Of a stretch of DNA of 61,719 nucleotides, positions 6,032 through 61,719 are shown one piece after another; position 1 is the first letter of the stretch, and each line of letters opens with the position of its first letter. Where the stretch lies: positions 1 through 61,719 of the forward strand of contig JALTWS010000016.1 in the NCBI GenBank assembly GCA_027048495.1, read 5' to 3'. The notes beneath the pieces are model-generated. The model was given only the letters and a program-made list of their open reading frames with translations, had not been told where the DNA came from and ran no database searches. The position numbers were made by a program, and so were the translations under genes. The stretch comes from Candidatus Azambacteria bacterium. Its GTDB lineage: Bacteria > Patescibacteriota > Minisyncoccia > GWC2-36-17 > M10-OD1-4.

Positions 6032-6184
6032 TTCATTCGTTTAACTTACGATCATGAACTGAACGAATGAAAATCTTTTGAGGACAAACCACTCACCTAA
6101 CTCACGATCGTGAGTTAAATGAGTAAAAATCTTTGAGGATAAAATTCACTCATCCAACTCACGATCGTGAGTTGGATGAGTGAA
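6032..6184. repeat. tandem array (3 units, 56-57 bp period) of 34-40 bp palindromes, core AACTCACGATCGTGAGTT (locus 1)
   Basis: Unit 6145-6184 is a perfect 40-nt palindrome (TTCACTCATCCAACTCACGATCGTGAGTTGGATGAGTGAA). Unit 6091-6124 is near-perfect. Unit 6032-6071 has a diverged centre but a perfectly compensated outer stem (TTCATTCGTT/AACGAATGAA). The spacers are similar (AAAATCTTTGAGGA). Confidence 0.95.
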
Positions 6185-6230
6185 TGGGAATAATAAAGAA
6201 AATTTGTGTATTTTGGTTATAATCTTTTTC

Positions 6231-6318
6231 ACTTAGCGGTCCGACCGCTAAGTAAACCGCTAAGTAAAAGATTATATTAATTAGCGGTCCGACCGCTAAG
6301 TAGACTGCTAAGTAATAA
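6231..6318. repeat. two 48-bp direct repeat units, each a 19-21 bp palindrome (C)TTAGCGGTCCGACCGCTAA(G) plus an extra GCTAAGTA half-site 12 bp downstream
   Basis: Palindromes at 6232-6252 and 6281-6299. GCTAAGTA occurs at 6247, 6259, 6295 and 6307. Confidence 0.9.
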
Positions 6319-6455: not shown

Positions 6456-6749
6456 TTAGAATCTGTCTTGTCTGTGGCAGTCTCTGCACTTTAGCTGTCC
6501 AACTCTTGATGGGTCCGGCTCAAACGGAAGTTCTGTTATTTCAGATCCGCACTTTGAGCAGCTCCAGCTTCCTTGGTGCATTTGTCTTTTGTGTCCGTAG
6601 CTGTTGTTTTTTGACTGCCTGTGGCAATCTCTGCACTTTAGCTGTCCTACTCTTGACGGATCCGGCTCAAACGGAAGTTCTGTTATTTCAGATCCGCACT
6701 TTGAGCAGCTCCAGCTTCCTTGGTGCATTTGTCTTTGTTCGTACGCCAT
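6456..6749 (-). CDS. tandem zinc-ribbon protein (2 x CxxC-x20-CxxC units)
   Basis: 97 aa made of two 49-aa units, each containing RQMHQGSWSCSKCGSEITELPFEPDPSRVGQLKCRDCHRQ. It resembles the small CxxC-x17-CxxC type domain (..C..CG....ELPF.PD.SR....C.DC). Confidence 0.75.
   Translation of the reverse strand: MAYEQRQMHQGSWSCSKCGSEITELPFEPDPSRVGQLKCRDCHRQSKNNSYGHKRQMHQGSWSCSKCGSEITELPFEPDPSRVGQLKCRDCHRQDRF
6472..6736. repeat. 147-bp in-frame tandem duplication inside the Zn-ribbon gene
   Basis: Segment 6472-6589 is nearly identical to 6619-6736. The few differences (GAC/GAT, AGA/AGG, CCA/CCG, GTT/GTA, GAC/GAT) are all synonymous. Confidence 0.95.
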
Positions 6750-10475: not shown

Positions 10476-10570
10476 TTCACTCACTCAACTCACGATCGTG
10501 AGTTTGGTGAGTGAATTTATTTATAAAAACTTTTAACTCATCTAACTCACGATCGTGAGTTAGATGAGTG
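10476..10570. repeat. tandem array (2 units, 57 bp period) of the AACTCACGATCGTGAGTT palindrome family (locus 2)
   Basis: Unit 10476-10515 (TTCACTCACTCAACTCACGATCGTGAGTTTGGTGAGTGAA) has one mismatched pair and one T:G pair. Unit 10536-10569 is perfect (ACTCATCTAACTCACGATCGTGAGTTAGATGAGT). Confidence 0.95.
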
Positions 10571-10646
10571 AGGTTAGGAAAAAGAGAAATTTTGGGTAGT
10601 CATAACTGTTTTGTAAGGAAACAGATTTTTGTGATATAATTTAAGC

Positions 10647-37806: not shown

Positions 37807-37845
37807 GTGTAATTTTTTGTTACGTAACATGCTACGTAACAAAAG

Positions 37846-40249: not shown

Positions 40250-40292
40250 AAAAACTATGCCAAAATTTAAAAGCTTTTAAATTTTGGCATAG
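40250..40292 (-). terminator. intrinsic terminator after mnmA (long perfect palindrome)
   Basis: CTATGCCAAAATTTAAAAGCTTTTAAATTTTGGCATAG (40255-40292) is followed on the minus strand by TTTTT. Confidence 0.7.
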
Positions 40293-42540: not shown

Positions 42541-42576
42541 TCCTAGGGATAACCCTAGGATTATCCCTAGGGTTGC
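42541..42576. repeat. three CCTAGG palindromes at exact 12-bp spacing
   Basis: TCCTAGGGATAA / CCCTAGGATTAT / CCCTAGGGTTGC, with CCTAGG at 42542, 42554 and 42566. It lies between the corA stop and the rlmN start. Confidence 0.85.
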
Positions 42577-52122: not shown

Positions 52123-52207
52123 ATTTTAATTTTAACATACTATCATAAAACACAAAGATAATCAACCCTAATTTTTTTGTTCTTTTTGCCCACAATAACC
52201 ACAAAAA

Positions 52208-52858
52208 TCAAGATCGATATATCTTTTTTTTACAACTCAAACATTCTTTCATTATTCTTTTGCCACAAAAAGAACAAAATTCAGATGATAAATCTAAAGA
52301 AAAAGAACAATTTGGACACTTTTTATCTCTTAATCTTCTTTTTGCTAATCTTTTTGGATCAAATATTCTTTTTTGAAGCAAGTATACAGACCCACCAAAA
52401 ATAAATGCTACAAATATCATTCCCAAATAGGAAATCAAGCTTTTTAATATTTGAATATTTTTTATAAATCCCCAAATAAATTCAAGTAAAACGCCTAAAA
52501 ATAACCCCCAAAAATAAACAAATGTTATTTGAATAACGAATATAGATACCGGGATAAGCAAAAATGTAAGTATTATAAGATAGGGACTATTTTTTGCACT
52601 AAGTCTAAAATAAAACTTCAAAAGCGCAAAAAACAAAGGAAATACGAACAAGACTTGGAGCAAAAATACATAAAACTCATATAATTTCCAAGACTCTTCA
52701 TATTCTTTTTGCAGTAAAGCATATTTTTCTTTTAAAAGTTTTTCTGATGGTTCTAAATTACTTTCCAACTGAGAAAGAGAAACTTCAAGCAAAGCTATTT
52801 CGCTTTCCAGATTTTTTATTTCTTGTGATAAGCTTTCAGTATTAAAATTTTCCGGCAA
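52208..52858 (-). CDS. coiled-coil multi-TM protein with C-terminal double Zn-ribbon; probable downstream part of a gene split at an A7 tract
   Basis: It has only a TTG start. Its frame stays open for 34 more codons upstream (KKITEIKNSISQKEFELQRLKQNYQLGALEKIGD) up to the A7 run at 52954-52960. The C-terminus is CPNCSFSLDLSSEFCSFCGKRIMKECLSCKKK. Confidence 0.6.
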   Translation of the reverse strand: MPENFNTESLSQEIKNLESEIALLEVSLSQLESNLEPSEKLLKEKYALLQKEYEESWKLYEFYVFLLQVLFVFPLFFALLKFYFRLSAKNSPYLIILTFLLIPVSIFVIQITFVYFWGLFLGVLLEFIWGFIKNIQILKSLISYLGMIFVAFIFGGSVYLLQKRIFDPKRLAKRRLRDKKCPNCSFSLDLSSEFCSFCGKRIMKECLSCKKKIYRS

Positions 52859-52950
52859 GTCCCCTATTTTTTCCAGTGCTCCAAGCTGGTAATTTTGTTT
52901 TAATCTTTGAAGCTCAAATTCTTTTTGAGAAATAGAGTTTTTTATTTCTG

Positions 52951-53214
52951 TTATTTTTTTCTATCTGACTTGGTCTCTGAAAAAATCTTATCTATCCCGT
53001 ATTTTTTTTCAATTTCTGAAAAATTACACTCTTCCGAACTTTGTTGCGGAAAGTAGGTTTTGTAATAATCTCTGTTTAAATAAACATCATCGCGAAAAGA
53101 ATATTCCCAGCCGTATTTAACATATTTTGAAGAGCAAAAAGAAAGCGCCTCAGGTTTTTTAGGCACATTGCTCAAGTCGTCCAGCGTTGCAAAACCAAAA
53201 AGCAAAACCACCAC
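52951..53214 (-). CDS. 87-aa ORF; probable upstream part of the same split gene
   Basis: It ends ..SDRKK-TAA on AGA AAA AAA TAA, and a -1 shift on A AAA AAA enters the 52208..52858 frame. It has a GTG start, with a TATAAT about 17 nt upstream. Confidence 0.4.
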   Translation of the reverse strand: MVVLLFGFATLDDLSNVPKKPEALSFCSSKYVKYGWEYSFRDDVYLNRDYYKTYFPQQSSEECNFSEIEKKYGIDKIFSETKSDRKK

Positions 53215-53385
53215 TAATTACATTTTACATTATAACGCCATAAAAATAAATAATCTATTTAAATTAGGTTATTTATTTATACAAGAGAATACTACGGAGG
53301 TCGGTGCTCGGCAAGATTAGAAAACTCAGTTTTTTGAAAAGGTTCAACCTTTTCAAACTTTCGGAGGTCAAATTTCAAATAATTA

Positions 53386-53727
53386 TTATTTTTTAGGATT
53401 TCGTTTTAAGTATTTTTTAACTGGTTTTGTCACACTATTTTGATTAATGTTTTTATTTTTACAATATTTTGTTTTAAACCAATCTATCAACTTTTTTACC
53501 CCCCCTACTTGAATTACACTAAGAACAACAAATTACAATATCTTCTATTTTTAATCCATCTTTCCAATAAAAAGGGCCGTCAAAATTTAAATGTTCTATT
53601 GTGGCGCTATCTTTTCTATTATTTACATCATAAGGATAGATCATTTTTTTATGGCAATAAACACAACTTTTATCTCTAAAAAATAATCTTTTTAATCTTC
53701 TTCTGGGATTCCAAATTTATTAGTCAT
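53386..53727 (-). pseudogene. decayed HNH endonuclease gene
   Basis: The minus strand reads MTNKFGIPEED, then a frameshift, then KRLFFRDKSCVYCHKKMIYPYDVNNRKDSATIEHLNFDGPFYWKDGLKIEDIVICCS, then TAG, then CNSSRG, then a G7 frameshift, then KKLIDWFKTKYCKNKNINQNSVTKPVKKYLKRNPKK. That makes three disrupting lesions. Confidence 0.75.
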
Positions 53728-53739
53728 AATATAAAATAG

Positions 53740-54369
53740 CTAAAGATAATTTTCTAATTCTAAAATATCATGATCATTTAATGGTATTTTCCAAAGCTCA
53801 TTAACTAACCAAAGCCCACTTTTCCTTATTTTTTCTTTTGGAGAGAAATTGCCTAACCAATTTTCAGAAGGTTTACATTCTTCACAAATAGAAACAGTAG
53901 AGATTATTCTTGATTCAAAATATAATCTTTTATTTTTGTCATCTATCTGAAAAACGATAAAAGAAAAATTATCCCGAATATATTTTGTTACTTTCTTTTC
54001 AATTTCTTTCTGCTTATCAAAATCAACAGAGTCAGAATATTGGTCTTTAGCATTTCTTGTTGTTAAATCTAATTCCCATTTTTCAAGGAATGGATCTTTA
54101 TCTTTATTCAATAATGCTCTGCCAATATTTTTCCTGAAAATGCTCCTGTCTTTATTCTCTTTCAAGAAATGCTGAAATAATCTTGAACGAAGTTGGTTTT
54201 GTCCTGTGTGCGTTCCAATTCTTACAATTCTATTAGTTGAATGGGCAAATTCATTTTTTTCAAATAAGATATAAATTCCGTTTTCAGGAATTTCTTGTTT
54301 ATCAAAAGGAAATGTGAATTTTTTCATTCCATTAAACCATTGATGAATTGTATTGCAATTTTTACTCAT
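53740..54369 (-). CDS. GIY-YIG/T5orf172-like nuclease-domain protein
   Basis: NGIYILFEKNEFAHSTNRIVRIGTHTGQNQLRSRLFQHF shows the GIY .. (R)IG .. R spacing, with later FRKNIGRALL and YFESRI. The likely start is ATG 54369, which overlaps the upstream stop (ATGAGTAA). Confidence 0.6.
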   Translation of the reverse strand: MSKNCNTIHQWFNGMKKFTFPFDKQEIPENGIYILFEKNEFAHSTNRIVRIGTHTGQNQLRSRLFQHFLKENKDRSIFRKNIGRALLNKDKDPFLEKWELDLTTRNAKDQYSDSVDFDKQKEIEKKVTKYIRDNFSFIVFQIDDKNKRLYFESRIISTVSICEECKPSENWLGNFSPKEKIRKSGLWLVNELWKIPLNDHDILELENYL

Positions 54370-54781
54370 TTTTAATCCTCTTAGACAGCCATTGAAGTTG
54401 TTTTCCAATGCCTAAACCCAACATTGGAATTTTATAATGTTTAAGATGTGGGAGTAAAAATTTTCTGTAATTATTCCCAGCCAGAAAAATAAATTCATCA
54501 TTTTCAATATCTGTTGATTTTTTCAATTGGTTTAATACAGAATTTGTCCACTCTTTTATTTCGTTGGAACGCATTTTATTGAGAGTTTTATCATAAGGTT
54601 CAATCTCTTTATTCAATCTCAATAAACCATATTTAGCAGAAAGAATGAAAATTTTATCAGGATTTAGAGATTTTGCGTACTGTAGGTTTTTCTTGAAAAG
54701 TGGGCTTACATACAAGTCTTGAGCTTTGGATTTATGATGAAGTTTTTTACTTGTGCACGAAATTAAGACAACTTTTGCCAT
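54362..54781 (-). CDS. DUF6884-like small protein (139 aa)
   Basis: KVVLISCTSKK..AQDLYVSPLFKK..IFILSAKYGLL..IEPYD..L matches my recollection of the DUF6884 pattern. The assignment is tentative and has not been verified by a database search. Confidence 0.5.
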   Translation of the reverse strand: MAKVVLISCTSKKLHHKSKAQDLYVSPLFKKNLQYAKSLNPDKIFILSAKYGLLRLNKEIEPYDKTLNKMRSNEIKEWTNSVLNQLKKSTDIENDEFIFLAGNNYRKFLLPHLKHYKIPMLGLGIGKQLQWLSKRIKNE

Positions 54782-54871
54782 TATACTAATAATGAAATCA
54801 AAATTATTACAGATGACTGAAGTCAGATTTCGACAACTTGGACTTCGGATAAATTAAAATAAGTTATTTTT

Positions 54872-55504
54872 TTAATCCAAATCAGAGTTTTCATTTGCAA
54901 TAGTAAGCACTCTTGAACGCTCATTCCCGGTAATGGTAAATCTAACTCCGTTAATAACTTTATTTGTATTCTGTGCAATATTTTCCATAACCCAGTTTTT
55001 AGCATAAACTTGGTCAGAATTATCATAAGGTATGCTAGCAATGTAGCCTAAAAAATCTTTAGCAACAATATCAGTAGACTTGCCACTATAATTTAAAGCA
55101 GTCGCCTGTACGGTTAATATTTCAGAAGGACCTTCACCCAAAATTTCGACAAGATACATATATTCTGATGTTTCTTCTTTACACTCCCACGATGCTAATC
55201 CGTTGTTAGAGCCCACATTAGGACCAGAACAAGAAAAACCGATATTATTTAAATTACCATAAATATCGACTGCGCTTACGCCTGGTATTGTAGCTATTTT
55301 TTTTAGTTCTTCCTTTACTGGAGTAATCGACTCATTTTTAACTTCCACTTGTTCTTCTTGCTTTTGTGGAGCAGAAGTGTTTTGTTTATTTGATAAATTA
55401 TCATTATCAGTTAATAAACTGATTATGATTAGACCAAGAAAGACAAACAAAATTATTGCCCACCATTTTTTATACCAAGGTTTTTGAATTTTTTCCATTG
55501 TCAT
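54872..55504 (-). CDS. membrane-anchored hypothetical protein
   Basis: The likely start is MTMEKIQKPWYKKWWAIILFVFLGLIIISLL (TM segment), followed by an extracytoplasmic domain with 2 Cys. The ORF is open from 55609 but that stretch overlaps the fba 3' end. Confidence 0.55.
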   Translation of the reverse strand: MTMEKIQKPWYKKWWAIILFVFLGLIIISLLTDNDNLSNKQNTSAPQKQEEQVEVKNESITPVKEELKKIATIPGVSAVDIYGNLNNIGFSCSGPNVGSNNGLASWECKEETSEYMYLVEILGEGPSEILTVQATALNYSGKSTDIVAKDFLGYIASIPYDNSDQVYAKNWVMENIAQNTNKVINGVRFTITGNERSRVLTIANENSDLD

Positions 55505-55584
55505 ATTTTTAAAATTAGTTAATAAGAAACGCCAAAAATCTTTTTTTTCAGAAAGAAATTTTACGTAATTAGCTTTTATGCAAA

Positions 55585-56457
55585 CTAAGCCTTTCCGTTG
55601 CTTCCGCAAATTAGCATTTTCTCTTCCACAACTTTTTGCATTTTCTCTTGCGCAGGAGCTATAAATTTATATGGAGTTATCTCTCCTTCTTCCAGTTTTT
55701 CTTTTATGGCGGAAGAAAAGACTACTCTTAACTCTGTGTTTACGTTTATCTTGCGTATCCCCAACTCAACTGACTTTTTAACATCTTCATCGGGAATACC
55801 CGAAGCGCCATGCAAAACCAAAACACACTTCCCTTTTAAAGTTTCTTGAAGTTCTGAGAGTCTTTGCATATCAAGTTTTGGCATGGCAACTTTTGAGATA
55901 CCATGCATGTTGCCTATTGAAACTCCGAGCCTGTCCACTCCGGTTGTCTCTACAAACTCCAAAGCCTGCTTTGGGTCTGTTAAATATTCGTCTTTTATCT
56001 CTATCTTCTCTTCAAAAACTTTAGAAGACCCTGTTCCGCCAATTTGCCCCAGCTCTCCTTCAACAGATATATCTTCGCTTACTTCCCTGCACATTTTTAC
56101 AGCTTTTTTTGTAAGTTCCAAATTTTCCTCATAGGGCAAAAGTGAACCGTCAAAGTGGATAGAGTTGTAGCCAGCATCAAGATATTGCTTTACTTTTTCT
56201 AATGATTTTGTGTGATCAGCATTTAAAATAACAGGGAGGCCTGTTTTTTTCTCATAAAAGTTTGCCAAAACAACTGCCTGCTCCATTCCTAAAAAACCAG
56301 ATTCTCCTTCTGATGTTCCAAACATTATAGGAGATCTTAATTTTTCTGCCGCTTTTACAACTGCCTTCATCTGATCCGCAGAAGAAACATTAAGCTGTGG
56401 TATTGCATATCTGCCATTTTCTGCTTTTTGAAATATTTTTTTTGTATTTAAATTCAT
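55585..56457 (-). CDS. fba: class II fructose-bisphosphate aldolase
   Basis: IPQLNVSS, NADHTKS, HFDGS, EGELG and VLHGASG. ATG 56457 (MNLNTKK) is preferred over 56487. Confidence 0.9.
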   Translation of the reverse strand: MNLNTKKIFQKAENGRYAIPQLNVSSADQMKAVVKAAEKLRSPIMFGTSEGESGFLGMEQAVVLANFYEKKTGLPVILNADHTKSLEKVKQYLDAGYNSIHFDGSLLPYEENLELTKKAVKMCREVSEDISVEGELGQIGGTGSSKVFEEKIEIKDEYLTDPKQALEFVETTGVDRLGVSIGNMHGISKVAMPKLDMQRLSELQETLKGKCVLVLHGASGIPDEDVKKSVELGIRKINVNTELRVVFSSAIKEKLEEGEITPYKFIAPAQEKMQKVVEEKMLICGSNGKA

Positions 56458-61364: not shown

Positions 61365-61458
61365 TCACTCACCCAACTCACGATCGTGAGTTGGGTGAGT
61401 GAGTTTACTTTTTAAATCTTTTACTCACCTAACTCACGATCGTGAGTTAGGTGAGTAA
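61365..61458. repeat. tandem array (2 units, 56 bp period) of the AACTCACGATCGTGAGTT palindrome family (locus 3)
   Basis: Both units are perfect 38-nt palindromes: 61365-61402 TCACTCACCCAACTCACGATCGTGAGTTGGGTGAGTGA and 61421-61458 TTACTCACCTAACTCACGATCGTGAGTTAGGTGAGTAA. Confidence 0.95.
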
Positions 61459-61522: not shown

Positions 61523-61719
61523 TTATGCAATTATGCCCTTGAAGTAGTCTTTGAACTTATCCTCTTTATCTATAGAGTCAGCAACTATAAAATGAATAAA
61601 ATCTTGAACATTATAAACTTCTACTATTTTAGACAAAATATCAAAACAATCCAAAGGATAAACAAAAACAGAATTTTGTAATTTTATAAATCCTATTTTA
61701 TTTAAATAATTCCTAATAG
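61523..61719 (-). CDS. partial CDS (5' end outside window); C-terminal tail of a small Cas2-fold/PaaX-C-like protein (tentative)
   Basis: The minus frame is open from the window edge to TAA 61523-61525: IRNYLNKIGFIKLQNSVFVYPLDCFDILSKIVEVYNVQDFIHFIVADSIDKEDKFKDYFKGIIA. The G(F/L)..LQ.SV(F/W)..P pattern is reminiscent of Cas2/PaaX-type tails. Confidence 0.4.
   Translation of the reverse strand, partial: IRNYLNKIGFIKLQNSVFVYPLDCFDILSKIVEVYNVQDFIHFIVADSIDKEDKFKDYFKGIIA

Follow-up and report, generated by a model that had tools for sequence, protein, structure and literature searches.

Long palindromes recur in tandem at three loci of the window analysed here, a 61,719-nt stretch of a Candidatus Azambacteria contig, and they raise the question of what such elements are and what keeps their arms matched. 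The exact 18-bp core AACTCACGATCGTGAGTT was found six times (starts 6099, 6156, 10487, 10544, 61375 and 61431). Shuffled sequence gave an expectation of 0.01 copies, and six or more copies were seen in 0 of 100 shuffles. Together with one degenerate unit, the six exact-core units are grouped as three arrays (Table 1). Adjacent unit centres lie 56 and 57 bp apart at locus 1, with the degenerate unit included, and 57 and 56 bp apart at loci 2 and 3, respectively; TRF reported a 57-bp period with 2.5 copies at 6042-6181. A sequence-only reading had described three loci of tandem palindromes with a 56-57 bp period and an invariant core, and this description held for the six exact copies, the seventh unit being degenerate.

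Table 1. Palindrome units of the three arrays and the adjoining gene, in window coordinates.
Feature	Position	Strand	Description
Array 1 unit 1	6032-6071		Centre AACTTACGATCATGAACT, 4 mismatches to core; 10-bp outer stem intact
Array 1 unit 2	6091-6124		Exact core; arms CCT/AAA; 17-nt arms, 88% complementary
Array 1 unit 3	6144-6185		TCC/GGA; 42-bp palindrome, 21-nt arms, 100% complementary
Array 2 unit 1	10476-10515		CTC/TGG; 20-nt arms, 90% complementary
Array 2 unit 2	10536-10570		TCT/AGA; 17-nt arms (10536-10569), 100% complementary
Array 3 unit 1	61365-61402		CCC/GGG; 19-nt arms, 100% complementary
Array 3 unit 2	61421-61458		CCT/AGG; 19-nt arms, 100% complementary
PaaX-like gene, 3' part	61523-61719	-	Last 64 codons and stop codon (61523-61525); cut by window end

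Four of the six triplet pairs beside the exact cores are perfectly matched, with CCT/AAA and CTC/TGG as the exceptions, just as first read. Unit 6091-6124 looks like a chimera of two unit types. The unit at 6032-6071 has a decayed centre and a perfect 10-bp outer stem, TTCATTCGTT/AACGAATGAA, which lies three compensated transitions from TTCACTCATC/GATGAGTGAA; the diverged centre and the compensated stem had been recognised before, and the count of two transitions is corrected here to three. Unit 6144-6185 folded as single-stranded DNA at -20.2 kcal/mol (z = -9.5). Spacers between units in the window are 17-20 bp long and alike among themselves, and arrays at separate loci are homologous with spacers included (84-89% over 79-101 bp). 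No shared element was found past the last unit, where similarity ended after an A-rich stretch of about 25 bp.

Because independent assemblies carry the same units, the arrays are not an assembly artefact, a concern that had been raised for them. Locus 2 was identical in NCBI assemblies GCA_027059165.1 and GCA_015488225.1. Locus 3 was seen again in one ENA contig and one NCBI contig, with one unit rather than two. In contig L089, which is 99.3-99.7% identical to the window, one recombinant unit (CCT/GGG) stands where the window has units 61365-61402 and 61421-61458, and five further units lie upstream of the adjoining gene that the window end cuts. Array copy number thus varies between strains that are 99.7% identical. 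Contigs from runs SRR10312503 and SRR10312489 stop at an array or shortly before one, as is usual for de Bruijn assemblies when they reach repeats.

The adjoining gene occupies the last 197 bases of the window, beside locus 3, and these encode the C-terminus of a PaaX-like protein. The sequence-only reading had not included this 3' end (61523-61719), which we regard as the decisive context. The full protein, P0001, has 186 aa and consists of an N-terminal winged helix followed by a PaaX_M/Cas2-like domain. Pfam PaaX_M was matched at 5e-24 to 5e-13 by three family members, and PF20803 was the precomputed assignment for P0001 and for all 29 other matches. An AF2 model of the protein had a pLDDT of 86; the best PDB matches in a fold search were E. 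coli PaaX (8a39) and Rv0674, followed by Cas2. The WDGKW motif is common to the PaaX-like protein and PaaX, whereas FDIPE, at the position of the Cas2 catalytic Asp, is retained in the short family and missing from E. coli PaaX. Neither the 186-aa protein nor most short homologues have the PaaX_C effector-binding domain, which was found only in 280-aa forms of Verrucomicrobiota-type MAGs such as L008. Clustered at 50% identity, the family found by profile search comprised 1,437 clusters at E<=1e-30 and, with the cut-off relaxed to E<=1e-3, 7,156. A phage or defence origin was rejected: no relatives were found on viral contigs, PADLOC returned weak Cas2 and Csa3 matches alone, and PHROGs gave no meaningful match.

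Gene and palindrome are physically linked well beyond the window. In L089 the gene lies between five upstream units and one downstream unit. The identical 18-mer was present in about 80 long palindromes from Patescibacteria and from Verrucomicrobiota and Kiritimatiellales relatives, at 1-6 exact-core sites per assembly; the window lineage has three loci in 62 kb and the five further units upstream of the gene. Among 88 loci found by the 18-mer alone, a PaaX-like ORF abutted the palindrome at 18, and at such loci the opposite gene end usually had a second, often degenerate, palindrome. PaaX-like genes were the sole recurrent neighbour of exact-core sites (17 of 149 neighbouring ORFs, other clusters reaching at most two).

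Generality was assessed on 80 metagenome loci picked by protein similarity alone. The density of long palindromes was 1.70 per kb in the roughly 200 bp next to the gene ends and 0.15 per kb elsewhere, an 11-fold enrichment, and 42 of 58 gene-flanking palindromes were centred on CGATCG or a one-off variant. At our own score threshold, a flanking palindrome was missing at 36 of 72 usable homologue loci. The linkage extends across the family, and the gene-plus-palindrome module is common in ultra-small (CPR) bacteria; we found no published description of it.

Arm evolution was examined in 90 distinct palindromes at positions 10-17 from the centre. These positions were 93-99% Watson-Crick paired with all four pair types present, and the covariation score was 0.557 versus 0.146 in shuffled and 0.11-0.16 in slid controls. 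In comparisons within genomes, 200 changes were compensated doubles, 156 affected one side only and 11 were doubles without compensation. Outside the window lineage, copies upstream and downstream of the gene differed by 19 compensated versus 10 one-sided changes. At an orthologous site within a 90%-identical intergenic region, both arms had switched from GTCACGGAAA to GTCACACATA, each being the arm type of the other copies in its own lineage. Between L032 and L041 the flanking intergenic DNA could not be aligned, yet the palindrome was still in place with one compensated change, a retention that suggests selection on the site. Because arm changes are compensated far above chance, including at orthologous sites, we judge that constraint acts on palindromy itself. 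G·U pairs filled 6 of 720 cells in the covarying columns, not above expectation among random mismatches, and this lack of excess points to a constraint at the level of DNA rather than RNA.

Arm types are specific to genomes: all CAYYYX01 copies have GTCACACATA and all PEUU01 copies have TTTAGTCAACA. The outermost arm extensions differ site by site, yet these too are palindromic. The same 18-mer is kept by PaaX-like proteins only about 25% identical to one another, while closer homologues have other arms. The earlier proposal had been that selection or conversion acts on a hairpin or cruciform rather than on primary sequence, and that covariation would reveal it. Compensation beyond chance bore this out; the dismissal of primary sequence did not stand, since inner arms are sequence-specific within a genome and common to dispersed copies, so that primary sequence matters alongside structure. 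That sharing of inner arms among dispersed copies is a feature the earlier reading had not included.

Copies lay in intergenic regions of 24 convergent, 9 divergent and 49 tandem gene pairs, and three convergent cases were confirmed via Pfam on both flanking genes. They often directly followed stop codons, favouring 3' ends and convergent regions. Many thus sit where no promoter is expected, and a plain promoter-operator role cannot account for those copies. The neighbours included truB, rpe-tkt, mraY and other housekeeping genes, and no paa genes lay nearby. In the window, unit 10476-10515 is flanked by mraY and an amidohydrolase-ftsW-murG operon, and unit 61365-61402 by the PaaX-like gene and rpe; a promoter-like TTGTAA-18-TATAAT lies at 10611-10640, about 40 bp downstream of unit 10536-10570. 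No regulon or synteny was conserved around homologues or exact-core sites. Relatives with an 85-87% identical TktN have no such module upstream of rpe, and a role as local regulator of the rpe-tkt operon was rejected because these close relatives retain the operon without the module. The exact sequence of the window Rpe protein was not on record; a look-up of TktN gave a match. The window contains no tRNAs, and the window-specific palindrome pattern had zero matches in metagenome contigs. A 3.4-kb island at 52175-55596 has neither a PaaX-like gene nor palindromes at its ends.

We lean, with moderate confidence, towards the palindromes being cognate DNA sites of the small, homodimeric PaaX-like protein, a predicted pairing. 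Within this lineage the sites would have multiplied into arrays, and either selection or correction templated by a hairpin or cruciform would preserve their symmetry. The module is laid out as palindrome(s)-gene-palindrome(s). The protein may dimerise via its Cas2-fold domain and would read the conserved centre (CGATCG, here the 18-bp core) together with the genome-specific inner arms. Autorepression would follow from the overlap of the gene-proximal site with the gene's best promoter candidate: TTGAGT-18-TACAAT, preceded by TG, at 1320-1349 of L089 overlaps that unit's right arm, although promoter-like matches in this AT-rich DNA are no commoner than in shuffles. Other copies would be occupied by the same protein. 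In the window lineage the sites appear to have been amplified as 57-bp tandem units and copied into other intergenic regions.

Dimer recognition alone would be insufficient, because copies presumably served by the same protein differ by compensated arm changes (YYY/RRR here; the 19 versus 10 changes elsewhere) and the outermost extensions are palindromic. Further points against the binding-site reading are the lack of a conserved regulon or synteny, the homologue loci that have no flanking palindrome, and the retention of one 18-mer by such divergent proteins when closer homologues differ in their arms. The perfect two-fold symmetry probably reaches past any need of the protein. Its upkeep may take place on DNA, through correction templated by a hairpin or cruciform, either as template switching in a quasipalindrome or as conversion of one arm by the other; alternatively or in addition, selection could favour a cruciform that is able to extrude and that the protein binds.

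Several of these observations would also suit selfish repeats of the REP/RAYT kind, hairpin elements spread and maintained by the protein they flank. The Cas2 fold of that protein would then cut or nick DNA in a structure-specific way, taking the part of an HUH Y1 transposase. We consider this, the main rival, unlikely. The gene is bracketed by its own repeats, as RAYT genes are, but where centres are asymmetric the two flanking copies are mostly direct (9, against 3 inverted), unlike transposon ends. The homology of the window arrays through their spacers implies copying as blocks, and copy number differs among near-identical strains; against this, the one to six exact-core sites per assembly represent a low copy number in most genomes, and solo sites are stably inherited at orthologous positions. 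There are no conserved neighbours among 130 flanking genes of homologues and the module is absent upstream of rpe in close relatives, both in favour of this reading, yet identical gene copies in differing contexts were not seen and no relatives lie on viral contigs. The bias to 3' ends and convergent regions recalls REP elements, and palindromic, site-specific outer arms fit hairpin intermediates. FDIPE at the Cas2 catalytic position, missing from E. coli PaaX, also speaks for it, although the protein's fold is not that of a transposase, a recombinase or an HUH enzyme and its nearest structures are a repressor and Cas2. A related and similarly doubtful possibility is that the palindromes form a hitherto unrecognised class of DNA hairpin or cruciform repeats with an associated protein. 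The fused Cas2-fold and winged-helix protein would then recognise a conserved CGATCG-centred apex and nick, resolve or otherwise process the extruded structure, an activity that would maintain perfect palindromy and let the repeats spread.

Chromosome-level sites that are not gene regulators, whether centromere-like or acting as roadblocks or insulators in the manner of parS-ParB, AspA or TubR, seem improbable. The sites are independent of promoters and occur in tandem arrays, the gene lies between its own sites in the manner of a partition cassette, and an 18-bp core conserved across phyla recalls parS; no partner NTPase was found beside the gene, however, and nothing puts the sites near a replication origin. 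Profile comparison weakly matched the winged helix to AspA (1.5e-4) and TubR (1.6e-3), both centromere binders, but the matches are marginal and MarR-type regulators reach similar scores. A role as RNA hairpins that terminate transcription, stabilise 3' ends or direct processing is distinctly improbable. Copies do often stand right behind stop codons or between convergent genes, the hairpins are very stable, and a few units score as terminator-like owing to T-rich spacers. Most copies nevertheless have no U-tract, ordinary terminators unrelated to the palindromes (a 3-4 nt loop and T-run) occur in the same genomes, G·U pairs are not in excess, and asymmetric centres are found in both orientations relative to the gene. 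Rfam gave no match at gathering score over the whole window, and permissive E-values on the L089 arrays gave only sub-threshold, generic miRNA hairpin models; an intrinsic terminator or known RNA family was rejected on these grounds. A relation to integron attC or other tyrosine-recombinase sites can hardly be credited. The boxes of the window lineage do read RYYYAAC...GTTRRRY, the likeness first remarked upon, but the pattern is confined to this lineage, other lineages with the same core having CATAAAC, ACAAAC and others at the same positions. The boxes lie just 12 bp from each other, the units sit among housekeeping genes with no cassette organisation, and tblastn of the window found no tyrosine recombinase, in agreement with the earlier reading.

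If the palindromes are indeed the sites of the PaaX-like protein, a large unnamed family would gain a concrete DNA partner and a testable function in Patescibacteria/CPR. It is rare for a DNA site to stay the same at 18 of 18 bases between phyla when its associated protein falls to about 25% identity. The system also offers a natural case of long perfect palindromes kept symmetric by compensated substitutions, outpacing flank divergence at an orthologous site, and possibly a model for cruciform biology or for quasipalindrome correction in vivo. Should the protein process structures, it would represent a REP/RAYT-like system built on a Cas2 fold, and hairpin processing by that fold could bear on the recruitment of Cas2 to palindromic CRISPR repeats.

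Comparison with known systems agreed with the initial impression that the palindromes belong to no recognised REP, MITE or CRISPR family: Rfam gave nothing, and no paper was found with the motif or tying PaaX to Patescibacteria/CPR. A CRISPR array was rejected on spacers that are 17-20 bp and mutually similar rather than unique and at least about 26 bp, the sole Cas-like feature being a Cas2-fold domain fused to a winged helix. Integron attC sites require R''/L''...L'/R' boxes and extrahelical bases within a 57-141 bp imperfect palindrome, whereas one lineage here has just RYYYAAC/GTTRRRY with perfect pairing and no extrahelical bases. TIGR-Tas arrays have a unit of about 36 nt and a Nop-domain protein, and were set apart from the palindrome arrays on that general description. 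Many palindromes of the family are centred on CGATCG or on GCGATCGC, the cyanobacterial HIP1 motif. HIP1 is an 8-mer dispersed by the thousands, also inside genes; here the motif centres 30-48 bp palindromes tied to one gene.

REP/REPIN-RAYT systems share extragenic, hairpin-forming, genome-specific palindromes that flank an associated gene, cluster and favour 3' ends. They differ in the protein, an HUH Y1 transposase there and PaaX-like here, and the present elements are perfect palindromes with a conserved centre, direct flanking copies and low copy number in most genomes. A GTAG head was not conserved at unit ends in 90 aligned copies, and tblastn for Y1_Tnp found nothing in the window, a weak test over 62 kb. 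A genuine REP/RAYT case was seen in the relative L178, where a Y1_Tnp-like gene with an HFHFIL motif is flanked by palindromes of its own. Common ground with parS-ParB, AspA and TubR lies in a short palindromic core conserved across phyla, clustering at the binder's gene, independence from promoters and repeated sites; here the arms are long and differ between genomes, the protein has another fold, with weak winged-helix similarity, and a ParA- or TubZ-type partner is lacking. A process known from E. coli, quasipalindrome template-switch mutagenesis, operates on DNA, turns imperfect into perfect palindromes and would give compensated, strictly Watson-Crick changes such as those seen here, but it describes how mutations arise and is not itself a genetic element.

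The closest protein counterpart is PaaX, the repressor of phenylacetate catabolism in E. coli and Pseudomonas (PDB 8a39), with the same N-terminal winged helix, Cas2-like middle domain and WDGKW. PaaX has 316 aa with a C-terminal acyl-CoA-sensing domain and controls paa genes, whereas the 186-aa protein of the window lineage is without that domain, retains the Cas2-type FDIPE that PaaX does not have, and has no paa genes nearby. The PaaX operator is roughly palindromic, as are the predicted targets here. Unlike that operator, these targets are perfect palindromes of 34-48 bp that flank the gene at either end, in some cases form tandem arrays and frequently lie well away from promoters.

Six exact copies of the 18-mer AACTCACGATCGTGAGTT, the core at the unit centre, were found in the window, compared with 0.01 expected. 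All six lay in three arrays with a centre-to-centre spacing of 56-57 bp. Four units were perfect palindromes of 34-42 bp, and two others were imperfect in the variable triplet (YYY/RRR, left arm/right arm). The arrays were reproduced in independent assemblies, and the tandem arrangement described in a sequence-only reading of the window was thus borne out. A seventh unit, 6032-6071, retained a perfect outer stem around a decayed centre, as that reading had described; it had counted two compensated transitions relative to the neighbours' stems, and we counted three. The window DNA was chromosomal, with 28-38% G+C and housekeeping genes (folD, scpAB, dacA, mraY, ftsW, murG, gltX, rpe and a split transketolase), and TktN had its closest named relatives in Parcubacteria-type CPR bacteria. 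CGATCG occurred only 7 times in 61.7 kb, 6 times as a palindrome centre, and GATC occurred 141 times compared with ~176 expected from base composition.

Coordinates of palindromes, genes and neighbouring features
Feature	Contig	Position	Strand	Remarks
Array 1	window	6032-6185		Between 3' ends of folD and zinc-finger gene
Array 2	window	10476-10570		Between co-directional genes
Array 3	window	61365-61458		Between co-directional genes
PaaX-like gene, C-terminal part	window	61523-61719	minus	Encodes ...IRNYLNKIGFIKLQNSVFVYP...GIIA*; window ends inside gene
Second tandem palindrome family	window	6229-6316		Immediately beyond array 1; unrelated to it
Tandem duplication, 147 bp	window	6472-6736		1.8 copies, 96% identical; inside ORF 6456-6749
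ORF, treble-clef zinc-finger protein	window	6456-6749	minus
Repeated/palindromic motif TTTTGTTACGTAACATGCTACGTAACAAAA	window	37815-37844		Short, intergenic
Perfect 38-bp palindrome CTATGCCAAAATTTAAAAGCTTTTAAATTTTGGCATAG	window	40255-40292		Centre AAGCTT; between two minus-strand genes; unrelated to PaaX-linked family
Repeated/palindromic motif CCTAGGGATAACCCTAGGATTATCCCTAGG	window	42542-42571		Short, intergenic
Island, 3.4 kb	window	52175-55596		Absent from L089
GC-rich hairpin CCCCCCAGCTTAACGCTGGGGG	L089	1255-1276		Between four-unit array and gene-proximal unit upstream of PaaX-like gene
Palindrome TTCATTACACTTTACGCGATCGCGTAAAGTGTAATGAA	L089	7851-7888		Perfect, CGATCG-centred; at island site
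Y1_Tnp-like gene with flanking palindromes	L178	2444-4192		HFHFIL motif; inserted upstream of rpe

The second palindrome family had two exact copies of TTAGCGGTCCGACCGCTAA, 48 bp apart (0 expected), with an additional half-site after each copy (ACCGCTAAGTA or GACTGCTAAGTA). Its CG-rich centre (GGTCCGACC) recalls the CGACCG/CGGTCG-centred palindromes beside PaaX-like genes elsewhere.

The sole recurrent neighbour of core sites was a gene for a PaaX-like protein (winged helix plus PaaX_M/Cas2-like domain). Palindrome pairs 600-900 bp apart closely enclosed this one ORF, which abutted a palindrome at 18 loci; the far gene end usually carried a second palindrome, in which core changes were often symmetric (e.g. 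TATTCACGATCGTGAATA). Palindromes on either side of a PaaX-like gene form a conserved physical module. The whole locus was visible in L089, a contig from a near-identical strain (99.3-99.7% identity to the window), in the order truB, four tandem units, GC-rich hairpin, fifth unit, 186-aa gene, one unit and rpe-tkt. The G+C content of the hairpin was conspicuous against the surrounding AT-rich DNA. No second PaaX-like gene was found within the window, and in this lineage perfect triplets of six different types (TCC, TCT, CCC, CCT, TTT, CTC) occurred next to the single gene. Downstream of the gene, the window had two units and L089 one, a composite (CCT/GGG) whose left arm matched one window unit and whose right arm matched the second. 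Copy number is therefore altered, and imperfect units are made, by recombination inside the invariant core; such recombination may also lie behind the CCT/AAA exception of the earlier reading. Units in the window lineage have been tandemly amplified and are polymorphic in copy number.

The module was then sought in 80 metagenome loci picked by protein similarity alone (31-43% identity), which contained almost no copies of the window core. Long near-perfect palindromes were enriched 11-fold at gene ends (1.70 vs 0.15 per kb), on both sides in 16 of 72 usable loci and on one side in 20. CGATCG or a variant (CTATCG/CGATAG, CGACCG/CGGTCG, CGGCCG) was the centre of 42/58 gene-flanking palindromes, CGATCG itself of 19; other hairpins at these loci were of the usual terminator type (3-4 nt loop, T-run). 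The module is therefore general, and the 18-mer core is one variant. Proteins accompanied by the exact 18-mer were only ~25% identical to each other and scattered across the family, which suggests that the 18-mer is a widely kept, probably ancestral, form of the site.

The core is not private to the window genome. Across 185,579 species genomes, a single scan gave 88 stretches with the exact 18-mer, where our own estimate of chance expectation was ~9 (596 Gb / 4^18). Most were from Patescibacteria, among them Saccharibacteria, Parcubacteria, Jorgensenbacteria, Nealsonbacteria, Berkelbacteria and Spechtbacterales; MAGs labelled Verrucomicrobiota, Kiritimatiellales, Pontiellaceae or Tichowtungia were a second source. 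In ~80 of the 88 the core lay within a palindrome (total arms 14-25 nt), with outer arms common to copies of one genome and different from genome to genome.

Arm covariation was assessed in an alignment of 90 distinct palindromes with the exact core. At positions 10-17, counted from the centre, pairing was 93-99% and included all four Watson-Crick types, and the covariation score was 0.557, compared with 0.146 for shuffles (0/500 as high) and 0.11-0.16 for slid controls. Within genomes, pairwise comparison gave 200 compensated doubles (~12 predicted by independence), 156 one-sided changes and 11 uncompensated doubles, counts that are mutually dependent and include MAGs that may mix strains or paralogues. 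Upstream and downstream copies at single loci of the protein-selected set differed by 19 compensated, 10 one-sided and 2 uncompensated changes. The compensated arm changes noted in the sequence-only reading are confirmed: arms evolve by compensation at the DNA level, and their sequences are genome-specific.

Orthologous sites behaved similarly. At L032/L041, neighbouring proteins were 77-87% identical and the intergenic DNA was no longer alignable; the palindrome had kept its place and differed by one compensated change (TATCAT...ATGATA vs TATCAC...GTGATA). The common intergenic region of L010/L053 was 90% identical, and three inner arm positions had changed on both sides (GTCACGGAAA vs GTCACACATA), each form matching other copies of its own lineage; the outermost site-specific extension also differed, and every change was compensated. 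Solo sites are thus under purifying selection. These data indicate that inner arms track a genome-specific reader, and that palindromy reaches site-specific flanks beyond specification by any shared protein.

Core sites were strongly intergenic (49 tandem, 24 convergent and 9 divergent by heuristic ORF calls), with Pfam support for both flanking genes in three convergent cases. No conserved neighbours were seen around PaaX-like homologues, and relatives with TktN 85-87% identical kept gap-rpiB-rpe-tkt without module or palindromes. The window island encoded a DUF6884 protein, a zinc-ribbon protein and three ORFs without family match; its site in L089 was 70 bp that included the tabulated palindrome.

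Profile search gave 1,437 representative clusters of the PaaX-like family at E≤1e-30, and 7,156 at E≤1e-3; this large family has no name, and its members are annotated 'hypothetical' or occasionally 'Cas2'. NCBIfam held no model specific to the protein, and no relatives were found on viral contigs. In the AF2 model (pLDDT 86) a ferredoxin-like domain comes after the winged helix; in structure comparison it was closest to E. coli PaaX (8a39) and M. tuberculosis Rv0674, with Cas2 proteins next.

Together, we infer that the palindromes are most likely binding sites of a PaaX-like homodimer, a reading we consider somewhat better than even. The variable inner arms would be read by the variable winged helix and the conserved centre by a conserved protein motif, and the gene-proximal site could mediate autoregulation. 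The best promoter candidate of the PaaX-like gene overlapped the proximal unit, in a region where promoter-like matches occurred at chance frequency. At 3'-end sites, occupancy could possibly serve as a roadblock, in insulation or in chromosome organisation. Symmetry in excess of recognition needs may reflect hairpin- or cruciform-templated correction, selection for an extrudable cruciform, or both.

The main rival, which we consider unlikely, is that the units belong to a selfish system akin to REP/RAYT, whose hairpins the Cas2-fold protein would process. In L178, from a relative of the window organism, a Y1_Tnp-like gene with palindromes of its own on either side (TCCCATACGTCCGACGTATG... and TCCCAGACGTCGGACGTCTGGGA) has a classical REP/RAYT appearance and occupies the same spot as the PaaX-like module in the window lineage. 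G·U pairs filled 6/720 cells at positions 10-17, close to the one-sixth of mismatches that chance alone would give; this DNA-type symmetry argues against RNA hairpins. The attC lead drawn earlier from attC-like boxes is likewise disfavoured, as are CRISPR and artefact readings.

Neither the motif AACTCACGATCGTGAGTT nor a link between PaaX-like proteins and palindromic repeats or CPR bacteria was found in the literature searched. The invariant WDGKW motif of the family aligned with PaaX in a PDB profile search, but PaaX lacks the FDIPE that is also invariant in the family and that we take to occupy the position of the Cas2 catalytic Asp. We class the module with a known general kind, a putative DNA-binding protein and the palindromic repeats cognate to it, and see a real chance of a new kind of repeat system.
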